Sequence record: OP197928
Reading direction: 5' to 3' (one strand)
Source of the DNA: Shigella phage A2
DNA: 64,000 nt
Under the pieces are notes generated by a model. That model saw only the letters and a list, made by a program, of their open reading frames with translations, had not been told where the DNA came from and ran no database searches. Shown one piece after another: positions 40,486-54,895 of the stretch. A program made the position numbers and the translations under genes. The number at the start of each line of letters is the position of its first letter. The stretch's first letter is position 1.

Positions 40486-40956
40486 TTAATCATGTGTCCA
40501 CACCCCATCGGTATTTGACCAAAGTCGCTGATTATCTGATCCTCGCCACAGCTTTTTGGTCGGAAGATTTTTCTCATACTTCCCATCAATAATAACATCA
40601 ACATATTTAAGCATTTCTAGTTGTTTAATATCTTCAAACTTATATCCTGTCCACAACCAAATGCTTTTATTGGGATAAAGATTTTTAATAGTTTGAACCA
40701 CAGAGTGAATCACGTCTCTGTTATCAGGATAAAGAGGGTCACCTCCGGTTATAGTTAATCCTTCTATATAATCATTATTCAAACATTCAATTAATTGTTC
40801 TAGTGTTTCACCAGTGAATGGAATACCATTTCTAGCATTCCATGTTGATTTATTATAACACCCTTCGCATTTATGCAAACAACCTGTAACGAAAAGAACG
40901 ACCCTGCAGCCAGGGCCATTCACAAAATCGCAAGGATAAAATCTATCATAATTCAT
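40486..40956 (-). CDS. nrdG: anaerobic ribonucleotide reductase activating protein NrdG (radical SAM), 156 aa
   Basis: Cys cluster CRVVLFVTGCLHKCEGC; 156 aa; directly downstream of nrdD. Confidence 0.85.
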   Translation of the reverse strand: MNYDRFYPCDFVNGPGCRVVLFVTGCLHKCEGCYNKSTWNARNGIPFTGETLEQLIECLNNDYIEGLTITGGDPLYPDNRDVIHSVVQTIKNLYPNKSIWLWTGYKFEDIKQLEMLKYVDVIIDGKYEKNLPTKKLWRGSDNQRLWSNTDGVWTHD

Positions 40957-50841: not shown

Positions 50842-51810
50842 TTATTTCAGAAGAGTAACCTCAGCAATTTCTTCCCAACCGTTTTTGTCTGTCATAATAA
50901 AGTCAGCAAGATAAAGAGCAGTACGCAGTGAAACATTGCGTAAACGATTAACATTGACTTTCATCCATGATAATGCTTTATAAGTTTCTTCATCAGAAAG
51001 ACCGCGCTTTTGCATCATGTCAGTTGAAAGAATAACATCTTCAACCCTGACCATAATTTCTTCATTAGTGTGAACACCCAAATCCAAATAAACTGAGCGG
51101 GAAACTAATGCTTGTAAATGTGGAGCAAGTTTAGTACCACGATCTAATTCGCGGTCAATATCAACGTTTGTGATAAAAACAATCGTTCCTTTAAATTCAA
51201 ACTCACGCTCAATGCCTTTTTCTTCTAAGTAAGAAGATGCAGTGCTCCAGCAGACTTTACGGGTCTCTCCAGTGTCCAGAGCAGCTTTTAGAAGATTAAG
51301 AATGTCCATATCAGAGAAAACATCCACATCATCAATCAAAAGGACAGAATTCTCTTCACGATTATTCCAAAGCTGTTCATAAAGACCGATACCAGAGATT
51401 TTACCATTAATGCTTTTATATTCAATGTATCCAATATCATTTGCTTTATTTAAAGCTTTATCTAAAGAATACGTTTTACCAATACCCGCCGCACCAGAGA
51501 TAATTAATGAACGAATGTTTCCGTTAATAATACCATTCGTCATCATTCCCATAACATTAAATCTTTTATTAATGCGGGTTTTCATATCTTCATACGATTC
51601 TTTAACTTCTTCAACTTTTACACCATCATATGAAATGTCTGATTTGTAAACCCAAACACCGCGACGCTTACCGTCAATTTCAACAAAAACTTTACCATCT
51701 CCTTGTGCATCTACCGGAGCATTATCTGGGAACCATTCGCCTAAGAGCTCAAAAGTTCCAGAGATTTCTTTACCGAAGTAGATACCCTTATTGATAGTTA
51801 CAGTTTTCAT
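50842..51810 (-). CDS. AAA+ family ATPase, 322 aa
   Basis: Walker A ISGAAGIGKT, Walker B VLLIDDVD. Confidence 0.6.
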   Translation of the reverse strand: MKTVTINKGIYFGKEISGTFELLGEWFPDNAPVDAQGDGKVFVEIDGKRRGVWVYKSDISYDGVKVEEVKESYEDMKTRINKRFNVMGMMTNGIINGNIRSLIISGAAGIGKTYSLDKALNKANDIGYIEYKSINGKISGIGLYEQLWNNREENSVLLIDDVDVFSDMDILNLLKAALDTGETRKVCWSTASSYLEEKGIEREFEFKGTIVFITNVDIDRELDRGTKLAPHLQALVSRSVYLDLGVHTNEEIMVRVEDVILSTDMMQKRGLSDEETYKALSWMKVNVNRLRNVSLRTALYLADFIMTDKNGWEEIAEVTLLK

Positions 51811-51867
51811 TTTATTCTCCTTTGATTTGATAGGACTACTATAACATAGTCCTATCAGTTTGTATAC

Positions 51868-52068
51868 TTATTTTGACATTTCTTCGATGTCACGACGATA
51901 CCCGTCACGAACTTCACGAAGAGCTTCAAGGCCACACATAGGCTCGATACCAGTAATGTGAACTTGATTAATCTGATACTCTACATCTTCTAACTGAGCG
52001 AAAACATAACGACGTTCAGCTGCACAACCAGATTTAGCTTTACCGAAACGTTTATTCAAAGTAGTCAT
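51868..52068 (-). CDS. hypothetical protein, 66 aa
   Basis: minus-strand ORF after early promoter 52107-52136. Confidence 0.45.
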   Translation of the reverse strand: MTTLNKRFGKAKSGCAAERRYVFAQLEDVEYQINQVHITGIEPMCGLEALREVRDGYRRDIEEMSK

Positions 52069-52106
52069 TTTGTATCTCCAATTTACTCATTTGTTTTGAT
52101 AGTTGT

Positions 52107-52136
52107 ATAGTACCATAAAGCTTTATGCCTGTAAAC
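52107..52136 (-). promoter_or_regulatory. early promoter immediately downstream of terminator
   Basis: reverse complement GTTTACaggcataaagctttatggTACTAT. Confidence 0.55.
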
Positions 52137-52154
52137 CGTTTTGTGAAAAATTTT

Positions 52155-52184
52155 TAAAATAAAAAGGGAGCCCGAAGGCTCCCT
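52155..52184 (-). terminator. intrinsic terminator downstream of nucleotidyltransferase gene
   Basis: GGGAGCC-UUCG-GGCUCCC followed by UUUUUAUUUU. Confidence 0.75.
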
Positions 52185-52185
52185 A

Positions 52186-53199
52186 TCATTTATAATAACT
52201 TCGGTGGTTTTCAAGATAAACCCTCTCAAGGAAGTCATCCCAGAAACCCATGTCTACTTTTTGCTGCATACCGTTCTTAGAAGCTTCAATAGATGCTGCT
52301 TCTACTTGATCGACCACATCTTCCAAAAACTCTTGAACAGTTTTAAATGGGTGTTTACCCAGCTTCACGTCGAGAATAAATGGAGCGTCTTGAAGTGGAT
52401 AGACTAAGTCACCAGTTTTGTAAATTTCCAATAGTTGGAGTCCACCACGACAAGCATGACTCAGTGCTTTCCAGTCAATGCCCTCATTCGCTTCAGCCTT
52501 ACGAGCACGTTCACCGTATTCGGCATCAAGTTTATTCAAAGACTGCTTAAGCTCAATAAGAGAAAGTGTTGTCTGATATTTACGACCCAACACAGTGTAG
52601 AACGTTTGTGGACCGGTTTTCTCATGATTATGGAATACCCATTCACAAAACTCGTTTTCAGGGAGTCGGTGTTTGATATCTTCTACCTTAGTTCGGCGTA
52701 AACGATCTGGAATTCCCTCTTGGTAATCAACCCACTGGTCAGGGATTTGATTAACTACTTTCAATACATCACGTAATGCGGCCAAACGAGAACCCTTGAC
52801 ACCGTATTTAGAAGCTTGCTTGCGAACATATCCTAAATAGGATTTCATGTTAGTCGTATAAAAACGAGAACGATTGTCTTGAATAAACTTCCATACATCA
52901 GGCAAATCAGATTTAACTACCAGTTCAGGTGGAGTGTGGAGCATATCCAATGCTACGGTTTCACCATCTGCTGCTAATTTAAAGAAATACTTAAGACTGT
53001 ATAGTTCATGGTCAATATCATCTTTGGTGTTTTTAGATGATGTGTTGTTAGTGTTTTTACTCATATGCTCTTTAACATTTCCAATAAGAATATCGCGAGC
53101 AGGAGGAACAAAGATTTCTTTAAAATCTACATCAGATTCTGGAGTAGAAGTTCCATAAAGATGACTACCAAAATAGCTTTTCATTACTGTTTTCATCAT
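52186..53199 (-). CDS. putative polymerase-beta superfamily nucleotidyltransferase, 337 aa
   Basis: N-terminal GS-x10-DVD motif (GSHLYGTSTPESDVDF); followed by strong terminator. Confidence 0.5.
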   Translation of the reverse strand: MMKTVMKSYFGSHLYGTSTPESDVDFKEIFVPPARDILIGNVKEHMSKNTNNTSSKNTKDDIDHELYSLKYFFKLAADGETVALDMLHTPPELVVKSDLPDVWKFIQDNRSRFYTTNMKSYLGYVRKQASKYGVKGSRLAALRDVLKVVNQIPDQWVDYQEGIPDRLRRTKVEDIKHRLPENEFCEWVFHNHEKTGPQTFYTVLGRKYQTTLSLIELKQSLNKLDAEYGERARKAEANEGIDWKALSHACRGGLQLLEIYKTGDLVYPLQDAPFILDVKLGKHPFKTVQEFLEDVVDQVEAASIEASKNGMQQKVDMGFWDDFLERVYLENHRSYYK

Positions 53200-53657
53200 T
53201 CAGCCTTATATTCAATAACAGGACATACTTTAGCTTTACGCGCTTTTAAAAATTCGACGATAATAGATTTCTTTGGTTGAATAGGAGGTAAACCTTTATA
53301 CGCCCTATCAATATTTTCTACATGTAAAGCATAATCCTTTTTCCATTTATAATCTTTATATTTTTCATGCAGTTGTGCAGGAATAACAAATGAACCAATA
53401 ATAAGTAAAACAAGCAAAATAGCAAGTATAAATGCTGATGGAATAAGAGTCCATAAACTACCAAAAATAAGCCATTTCTGCATGATTTCTGCGCAGATGA
53501 TAGTTAGACCTGCGAGTATAGTACATCCGAAAAAAGAAACGAAAAATGTAGGGATAACAATAGACCAAAAGTATGCACACAGTGTCTTAGGTCGTTTCCA
53601 TTCGTCGTTAAACAGTTTGAATAATTTATAGTGCCAAGAGTTTTCATTAATAATCAT
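53196..53657 (-). CDS. integral membrane protein, 153 aa
   Basis: two long hydrophobic helices. Confidence 0.5.
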   Translation of the reverse strand: MIINENSWHYKLFKLFNDEWKRPKTLCAYFWSIVIPTFFVSFFGCTILAGLTIICAEIMQKWLIFGSLWTLIPSAFILAILLVLLIIGSFVIPAQLHEKYKDYKWKKDYALHVENIDRAYKGLPPIQPKKSIIVEFLKARKAKVCPVIEYKAE

Positions 53658-53659
53658 AA

Positions 53660-54181
53660 TTATCCTTTCATTGAAGGTGTAACAGTTGTTAAATACTTAA
53701 TCATAGCCTCAGCTTCTGATTTTGATAGTGAAATTTCTTCACCGTTTTGGCGAATAGAAACAAAATCTGGATGACGATCACCACCAGCTTTTAAAACACA
53801 CATATAAGTATCAGCTTCGCCTTCAATATTTGAAATGATTGAAGCAGTTCCACACGAATGTGGTTTTTGATAAATCAATACAGCTTTTCTTCCACCATTT
53901 GACTGTTCATAGGCTTTTAATACATCAAACAAATCAGTTCTTTTATCAATAGCTAAAATGTTATTTTCATCTTCAATGTTAAATCCTTCGGATACTTCAT
54001 AAAGTGTCACCCATAAATCGCCAATATCAATAACAGCGTTCACTTTTCCATGACTTTCAAGAGCATGACAAATTTTCTTGATTTCGTCATAACTCATTTT
54101 AATAATATCATCTCCTTGAATAAGAAAGATGTCATTTTTAAATTCAACACGAATTAAACCACTTTCACTTGAAATAAACAT
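53660..54181 (-). CDS. hypothetical protein, 173 aa, paralog of next gene
   Basis: C-terminus SKSEAEAMIKYLTTVTPSM resembles neighbour. Confidence 0.5.
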   Translation of the reverse strand: MFISSESGLIRVEFKNDIFLIQGDDIIKMSYDEIKKICHALESHGKVNAVIDIGDLWVTLYEVSEGFNIEDENNILAIDKRTDLFDVLKAYEQSNGGRKAVLIYQKPHSCGTASIISNIEGEADTYMCVLKAGGDRHPDFVSIRQNGEEISLSKSEAEAMIKYLTTVTPSMKG

Positions 54182-54187
54182 ATTTCC

Positions 54188-54733
54188 TCACTTTGAAATC
54201 ATAGTTGGAATGACAGAATCAAGATAAGTCTTTAGTGCAATAGCTTCGTCTTTGGTAAATGTGACAATATGTGCTCGAAAATCATCAATTTGACGAATAG
54301 TTAAGACATCTCCATCTTCATAACATTTTGATACGTTTAAAACAGTTTCATCATTCTGATTGCAAGCGTTAGTAATAATAGCATTGCAATTTTTAAACCA
54401 TTTTAAACTATGTTTTCTTTCATTAGAATAATAAAAATATTTAATCTTATCTATAAAACTATCCCAATGGATAACTGATAAGCATATTGACTCGCTTTCA
54501 ATATTAAATCCTGGGCATGAAGAATAAAAATGAATTTTATGCTCATCATTAATGCTTACAATTTTATCAGTATAAGGATTTTCAATTTTGGTTAAATGAA
54601 TGATTTCACTAGGCGTAAAATACAGCATATCGTCTTCTTGTGTCAAACGATACATATTATTTACTTTTTCTATAGCCAATTCACCAAAAAGTGAACTAAC
54701 TTCTAATACTAATCGTTTCGCCGCTACCGTCAT
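54188..54733 (-). CDS. hypothetical protein, 181 aa, paralog of previous gene
   Basis: C-terminus TKDEAIALKTYLDSVIPTM. Confidence 0.5.
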   Translation of the reverse strand: MTVAAKRLVLEVSSLFGELAIEKVNNMYRLTQEDDMLYFTPSEIIHLTKIENPYTDKIVSINDEHKIHFYSSCPGFNIESESICLSVIHWDSFIDKIKYFYYSNERKHSLKWFKNCNAIITNACNQNDETVLNVSKCYEDGDVLTIRQIDDFRAHIVTFTKDEAIALKTYLDSVIPTMISK

Positions 54734-54865
54734 TACATACTCCTCTGAATCATATCAATAATGTTGTTTACCAAATTATAAGTAAACATTGGGTAATTAT
54801 ATTGAATCATCACATACACAACAAACAAAACTTTCATTCTCTTCTCCTTGGCAGTTGACAAGATT

Positions 54866-54895
54866 ACTATACCATAACCTTGCCAACTTGTAAAC
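54866..54895 (-). promoter_or_regulatory. early promoter
   Basis: reverse complement GTTTACaagttggcaaggttatggTATAGT. Confidence 0.55.

Follow-up and report, generated by a model that had tools for sequence, protein, structure and literature searches.

The nrdC.11 locus of Shigella phage A2

The minus strand of the window, by which we mean the whole 64,000-nucleotide stretch of Shigella phage A2 (OP197928) that was analyzed, carries at 52186..53199 an open reading frame which encodes 337 aa from its first ATG and ends with a TAA stop codon at 52186..52188; this frame, on which the initial annotation was built, is present as such in the ORF list. The first ATG shares bases with the TGA that ends the membrane-protein gene upstream (ATGA), and a second ATG at 53196 corresponds to the start annotated in orthologs and gives a product of 336 aa. 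Plus-strand shadow ORFs of 56-88 aa lying over the locus had no support and were set aside.

The phage is of the Tequatrovirus (T4-like) class. The stretch 51800-53700 is 99.6% identical to Escherichia phage JLBYU22, and 683 phage records matched it in a nucleotide search. T4 NrdC.11 (NP_049709; RefSeq name "nucleotidyltransferase") shows 96% amino acid identity over its full length and NrdC.11 of phage ime09 shows 100%. Homologs were detected by tblastn in 1517 phage records, at identities from 100% down to about 28%, in phages of Escherichia, Klebsiella, Aeromonas, Acinetobacter, and Vibrio and in Sinorhizobium phage phiM12. By sequence comparison the ORF at 52186..53199 is the ortholog of T4 nrdC.11 and encodes a Pol-beta nucleotidyltransferase of the RlaP family (PF10127). 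It is therefore an annotated T4 gene and a published member of RlaP, already known and not a new element; a match of T4 NrdC.11 to COG3541 was noted in 2006. In the T4 reference sequence NC_000866 residue 102 of the nrdC.11 product (L086:6436-7446) is given as X, which points to an ambiguous base within the gene in that record.

Transcription unit and neighboring genes

An intrinsic terminator at 52155..52184 (-) starts one base past the stop codon of nrdC.11. Its 8-bp stem, in which six pairs are GC, is capped by a UUCG loop and followed by a T5-A-T4 tail; the element was read in the terminator scan as AGGGAGCC-TTCG-GGCTCCCT, then TTTTTATTTT (52184..52165, minus strand). The hairpin had been described as the strongest terminator in the window; it is real and kept in T4, and at -14.1 kcal/mol it ranks as the second most stable terminator-like hairpin on both strands of the whole window, so that the description is approximately correct. 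The most stable one, at 40896..40921 (-), has an 11-bp stem and -17.5 kcal/mol and is followed by TTTTCG. Beyond the nrdC.11 terminator the promoter scan found, as had been claimed, an early-type sigma-70 promoter-like site at 52107..52135 (-) with the sequence TTTACA-17-TACTAT and a TG. Both terminator and promoter are present at the same place in T4, where the promoter lies upstream of nrdC.10.

Judging from its match to the consensus, the site at 52107..52135 would start the next unit, composed of a 66-aa ORF (51868..52068 (-); PHROG 6200, unknown function) and then nrdC.10 (50842..51810 (-)). The latter is the downstream AAA+ gene of the initial annotation, encoding an AAA+-like protein with a P-loop and sub-threshold AAA matches. 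The 66-aa ORF, which lies between the promoter and nrdC.10, is a small insertion with respect to T4, in which nrdC.10 directly follows the promoter. The gap between this ORF and the start of nrdC.10 contains an inverted repeat with a 12-bp stem (51827..51858), which is overlapped by a promoter-like TATACA-17-TATAGT with TG at 51866..51838 (-); the repeat and this site may represent a regulatory hairpin or a second promoter.

Upstream of nrdC.11, and likewise on the minus strand, are a gene for a 153-aa membrane protein (53196..53657; PHROG 944), whose stop overlaps the nrdC.11 start, two y05I-like paralogs at 53660..54181 and 54188..54733 (PF24449 and PF24448), and a 42-aa ORF of the ORF list within the upstream unit, 53196..54894. 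The membrane protein and the duplicated gene pair noted earlier were thus recovered with family assignments. A promoter-like site at 54894..54866 (-) reads TTTACA-17-TATAGT and agrees with the consensus at 10 of 12 positions, with TG. The scan detected no minus-strand terminator between this site and nrdC.11, and from this layout nrdC.11 is probably co-transcribed with the upstream genes of 53196..54894 (-). Rather than the stand-alone gene that had been proposed, nrdC.11 comes last in an early unit of several genes, which it closes, as was also proposed, with the terminator one base past its stop and a promoter next.

The upstream neighbors differ between the two phages. In T4 nrdC.11 is abutted by the homing-endonuclease gene mobD, which this phage lacks. 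The place of mobD is taken by the membrane-protein gene (PHROG 944) and, beside the mobD.1-type gene, another y05I-like paralog, and 53196..54733 has the appearance of a hotspot for gene exchange. Compared with T4 as a whole, the 96% identity, the position upstream of nrdC.10, the terminator, and the promoter are shared, whereas the 66-aa ORF before nrdC.10 and the extra y05I-like paralog are found here only and residue 61 of the protein is D instead of the N of T4.

Family membership and active site

The N-terminus of the protein reads FGSHLYGTSTPESDVDF, i.e., G11-S12 (53164..53169 (-)), ten residues, and D23-V24-D25 (53125..53133 (-); codons GATGTAGAT, minus strand, 53133..53125), exactly the GS-x10-DVD motif which had suggested the Pol-beta superfamily. 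This spacing agrees with the superfamily signature, hG[GS] followed 9-13 residues on by [DE]h[DE]h, and the DVD is the predicted metal-binding motif of an N-terminal NTase domain. The Pfam model PF10127 (RlaP, "RNA repair pathway DNA polymerase beta family") matched residues 7-136 with profile positions 23-143 of 249, at 43.8 bits (E=3.3e-11; cut-off, 23 bits), and PHROG 388 'nucleotidyltransferase' matched with E=2.5e-136; a spurious motif match can be rejected on these profile scores. The first description of RlaP is reportedly due to Burroughs and Aravind.

A HMMER scan against 1.84 billion cluster representatives produced 3426 relatives at E<=1e-3, the best 150 of which were mostly full-length proteins of 300-350 aa. 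In a clade alignment of 138 sequences, which are 34-55% identical to the query, the residues G11, S12, Y132, H248, R251, and P268 are invariant (138/138); 137 sequences retain D23 and D25, and position 63 is always D or E (138/138). D63 (53011..53013 (-)) lies on the predicted strand 62-68 of the AlphaFold2 (AF2) model; because T4 has N at position 61, D63 and not D61 is the likely third catalytic carboxylate, the acidic residue which the initial annotation had left to be checked. Inactivating substitutions were looked for on the alignment and are absent, and the conservation of D23, D25, and D63 therefore points to an intact active site. Taken together, the alignment and the profiles indicate that the GS...DVD motif is not a chance match, and the Pol-beta reading passed the profile, fold, and active-site tests alike.

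Membership in each of the other families considered, the CD-NTase, MNT, ANT, and CCA-adding enzymes, was rejected since no profile-level match was obtained. PADLOC returned nothing, no CD-NTase (CBASS) match was obtained in profile or fold, and none to the MNT family rose above threshold. The MntA model NF047752 of NCBIfam, with a cut-off of 60, scored 13.2 bits in the region of the GS motif only, and a HEPN toxin partner, as in MntA-type pairs, was not found among the genes around nrdC.11. Nor was there profile-level membership in the aminoglycoside and lincosamide nucleotidyltransferases (KNTase, ANT(4'), LinB).

Domain architecture and a clade-specific insertion

While nothing recognizable had been seen in some 280 aa following the motif, this part of the protein can be resolved into the rest of the RlaP N-terminal domain (to residue ~140), an insertion of the clade, and a C-terminal helical domain. 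The AF2 model built with the alignment (pLDDT 94.3, pTM 0.85) shows an NTase alpha/beta domain with helices to about residue 150, followed by a beta-strand module (155-209), a long helix (214-236), and a helical C-terminal domain; its pattern of strands and helices is consistent with the minimal NTase alpha/beta fold.

For comparison with canonical RlaPs two PF10127 proteins of 252 aa were used, one encoded on a plasmid of Bacillus pumilus and the other on a plasmid of Curtobacterium; each covers the whole 249-position model. In contrast, the nrdC.11 protein and all 10 further clade members scanned matched only positions ~19-150 of 249. Profile-profile comparison (hhalign) nevertheless aligned the clade with the two canonical RlaPs over the full length (probability, 99.8% and 99.0%), in two blocks corresponding to residues 3-~140 and ~241-330, and D242-W-K...H248-x-x-R251 of the phage protein fell on a D-x-K...H-x-x-R of the canonical proteins. 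The NTase domain (residues ~1-140; 52780..53199 (-)) is thus defined by the PF10127 match, the conserved residues, and the AF2 fold. The C-terminal domain (~241-337; 52189..52479 (-)), which contains the motif D242-W-K-A-x-S-H248-A-x-R251 (H248..R251 at 52447..52458 (-)), is defined by the hhalign alignment. Residues ~145-240 (52480..52767 (-)), modeled by AF2 as strands and a helix, have no counterpart in the canonical RlaPs. An insertion at this place was found in 138 of 138 clade members, with a length of 72-108 aa (typically about 85-95 aa) and a conserved motif of its own, Y-x-VCG-x-K-x-Q-x-T, and it is because of this insertion that the Pfam match stops at ~150 of 249. [quoted passage not shown] The basic residues conserved in the 138-sequence alignment of the NrdC.11 clade (K131, R138, R231, K244, R251, and K279) are compatible with a cleft of this type.

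Searches of the PDB by sequence, using the protein and the clade profile, gave no meaningful match, and Foldseek with the AF2 model returned nothing at E<1e-3, the best E being no better than 6e-3; no PfRlaP-like chain was found by sequence or by fold. The structures at the top of the Foldseek matches are two-domain NTases with 8-15% identity, namely HalB, ANT/KNTase, LinB, and the structural-genomics NTase 3c18, and these resemblances of the predicted model are at the level of the fold only. KNTase, ANT(4'), LinB, and 3c18 (8-13% identity) have no profile match to the phage protein, and the first three act on small molecules. The best structural match, the Hailong oligodeoxyadenylate synthase HalB (9dbh, 9dbj), is 15% identical and invisible to sequence and PADLOC models; it is shorter (~217 aa) and partners with the effector HalA, which has no counterpart here. 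Many phage "nucleotidyltransferases" in a library of viral structures, 230-290 aa in length, span the whole model, with target-normalized TM values of 0.5-0.77.

Genomic context of the NrdC.11 clade

In T4 and in phages of the present type, nrdC.11 lies among unrelated early genes, 50-80 kb from pnk, rnlA, and rnlB; in the near-identical JLBYU22 the genes for Rnl2, Pnk, and Rnl1 were located at this distance. A different picture emerged when the clade was followed beyond these phages. A scan of bacterial and archaeal genomes identified 156 relatives with 32-54% identity, and for the best 80 of these loci the neighboring ORFs were clustered and checked against Pfam. RNA-repair genes were neighbors in 15 of the 80, and in 10 of the 48 whose flanks reached 3 kb or more on each side; they nearly always shared the strand of the homolog and in many cases directly adjoined it. 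Among the best 80, RtcB was found eight times, Pnkp (kinase-phosphatase-ligase) six times, and Hen1 and Ro60/TROVE four times each. The other bacterial and archaeal neighborhoods of the clade were heterogeneous. Of 80 diverse viral loci from IMG/VR, 21 had, no more than 8 kb away and in every case on the same strand, a gene for Pnk, Rnl1, RtcB, Ro60, an Rnl2-like ligase, or a Pnkp-like protein. About 75-80% of the clade loci are without an RNA-repair neighbor.

Four viral loci carry compact cassettes, each confirmed with Pfam, in which the RlaP is of the NrdC.11 type and the virus is uncultured: T4-type Pnk (kinase and HAD phosphatase), RlaP, and Rnl1 (L163:6902-10020); an HD-kinase protein, RlaP, and Rnl1 (L126:4731-8155); RlaP, Pnk, and Rnl1 (L146:8001-12479); and RlaP with RtcB (L119:7977-10419). 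In phage phiM12 the homolog is flanked by two RNA ligase genes. The association with RNA ligases and end-healing enzymes which characterizes RlaP neighborhoods is therefore seen across the clade and not locally in this phage, and the partners RtcB, Pnkp, Hen1, and RNA ligase are those to which the RlaP family at large is also linked. No toxin, HEPN, or effector partner was conserved beside the clade in the 80 genome loci and 80 viral loci.

Some other pairings were also encountered. A protein of ~516 aa with a uracil-DNA-glycosylase-superfamily domain follows the NrdC.11-type gene in three loci of the genome scan (e.g., L010:1614-3164) and a RecQ-like helicase does so in three (e.g., L036:8964-10895); both are DNA-repair and not RNA-repair neighbors. 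In the Curtobacterium plasmid NZ_CP126255 (L088:4760-8399) a gap of 46 bp separates the canonical 252-aa RlaP from a downstream gene of the same strand, whose product, more than 1200 aa within the locus, has methyltransferase and DEAD/ResIII helicase domains, an unusual partner for an RlaP.

Proposed function of NrdC.11

RNA repair in the service of phage counter-defense has its founding example in the Pnk and Rnl1 enzymes of T4, and nucleases of the RloC type have been proposed to defeat them by removing a nucleotide. Our preferred reading, which we regard as probable on balance, is that NrdC.11 acts between Pnk and Rnl1 and restores the excised nucleotide of a cleaved tRNA. In this scheme NrdC.11 would be expressed early, its GS loop (G11-S12) would bind an NTP, and D23, D25, and D63 would hold two metals; with the RNA held in the cleft formed with the helical domain, NMP would be transferred from the NTP to an RNA 3'-OH without a template and for 1-2 nt. 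Pnk would first turn the 2',3'-cyclic phosphate at the break into a 3'-OH and phosphorylate the 5'-OH, NrdC.11 would then replace the nucleotide excised by a RloC-type host anticodon nuclease, and Rnl1, which joins 5'-phosphate to 3'-OH, would finally seal the nick. The ~90-aa insertion may help to recognize the broken RNA. We infer the broken tRNA as substrate, the order of the pathway, and the role of the insertion from the family and its gene neighborhoods.

The activity at the RNA 3'-OH is assigned to the phage enzyme by analogy with two RlaPs of Pseudomonas, PfRlaP and PaRlaP, characterized in a preprint of December 2025 (PMC12776372). Among E. coli macromolecules both label RNA alone, and not protein or DNA; they require a 3'-OH, add 1-2 NMP with little base preference and then stop, prefer Mn2+ or Co2+, and favor the 5' half of a broken-tRNA mimic (PMC12776372). 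RlaPs also partly restore the aminoacylation of a tRNA-Asp lacking one anticodon-loop nucleotide, and the authors propose that they counter nucleotide-removing ribotoxins such as RloC (PMC12776372), which excises the wobble nucleotide (PMC2610378). The same prediction was made for phage RlaPs in a 2021 survey of jumbo phages, where their distribution was found to mirror that of RNA ligases (PMC7824862). According to the preprint RlaP chemistry is not obviously compatible with RtcB (PMC12776372); the addition of NMP is compatible with the ligases of T4. Of the options which the initial annotation had listed for the phage protein, modification of nucleic acid ends fits best, because NrdC.11 is an RlaP and genes of its clade are linked to those for Pnk, RNA ligase, and RtcB.

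[quoted passage not shown] If its base choice were as non-specific as that of the characterized RlaPs, faithful restoration of a nucleotide would be inefficient. Since the characterized enzymes belong to the other sub-cluster and are without the insertion, the acceptor specificity of NrdC.11 could differ from theirs. The literature's own prediction, as applied to T4, would make NrdC.11 the missing third enzyme of tRNA repair in this phage, reversing the wobble excision by RloC; we hold this tentatively and would place it below an even chance. T4 tolerates a deletion from nrdC.11 to mobD.3 under laboratory conditions (PMC9825161), which is compatible with a conditional role and gives no positive support.

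The distance of nrdC.11 from the repair genes in T4-like phages, and the majority of clade loci that have no repair neighbor, would also suit an RNA 3'-end nucleotidyltransferase with no role in break repair, one which tails or marks host or phage RNAs or mends the 3' (CCA) ends of tRNA. The characterized RlaPs do accept single-stranded RNA and, in total RNA of E. coli, label species with the sizes of rRNA and of full-length tRNA (PMC12776372). However, their addition halts at 1-2 nt, unlike that of tailing enzymes (PMC12776372), and where the clade is linked to other genes these are Pnk, Rnl1, RtcB, and Pnkp/Hen1 and not genes of RNA decay or tRNA maturation. Aeromonas phage AS-sw, moreover, has a separate tRNA nucleotidyltransferase in addition to its nrdC.11 homolog, which argues against redundancy with CCA repair. 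We consider this alternative unlikely.

A good deal less probable is an anti-defense nucleotidyltransferase with a non-RNA acceptor, which would AMPylate a toxin as MntA does, nucleotidylylate a small molecule as do ANT and LinB, or make or mimic an oligonucleotide signal as does HalB. It is the resemblance in fold to HalB, ANT, and MNT that suggests such an acceptor or a signaling role, but with 8-15% identity and Foldseek E-values no better than 6e-3 the likeness stays at the fold level, PADLOC, MntA (13 bits against 60), and the PDB chains gave no sequence match, the characterized RlaPs leave protein and DNA unmodified (PMC12776372), and the clade has no conserved toxin, HEPN, or effector partner. 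Neither the transfer to small molecules nor the interference with nucleotide signaling (CBASS/Pycsar) that had been suggested for this gene thus found support. A related idea, that the insertion redirects NrdC.11 from tRNA repair to the making or extension of oligonucleotides or to the modification of a defense component, e.g., as a mimic of the HalB signal which silences a Hailong-like effector, would amount to a new kind of counter-defense, and we regard it as very improbable. Least probable of all is a two-gene module with the AAA+-like NrdC.10: they are neighbors both in T4 and here, but are separated by a strong terminator and a separate promoter, and a nrdC.10-like neighbor was present in none of the 80 diverse viral loci and none of phiM12, KPN8, and AS-sw, so that a functional pair was rejected.

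If NrdC.11 does restore a missing nucleotide between Pnk and Rnl1, it would represent another round in the RNA-repair arms race between phage and host, and it would be explained why more than 1500 sequenced phages, both T4-like and other large ones, retain the gene. The idea itself is already in print, both in the 2021 jumbo-phage survey, where an older account of RlaP is credited (PMC7824862), and in the 2025 RlaP preprint (PMC12776372). Seen in the present analysis are the conservation of the C-terminal domain in the phage clade, a defined insertion of ~90 aa, and viral Pnk-RlaP-Rnl1 cassettes which belong to the NrdC.11 clade.

Database labels of related genes

Labels derived from gene names have led to widespread errors in GenBank. 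NrdC.10, NrdC.11, and other nrdC.x products are deposited as 'thioredoxin', mobD.x proteins as 'molybdopterin-guanine dinucleotide biosynthesis protein MobD', and one NrdC.11 record carries the label 'HNH homing endonuclease'.
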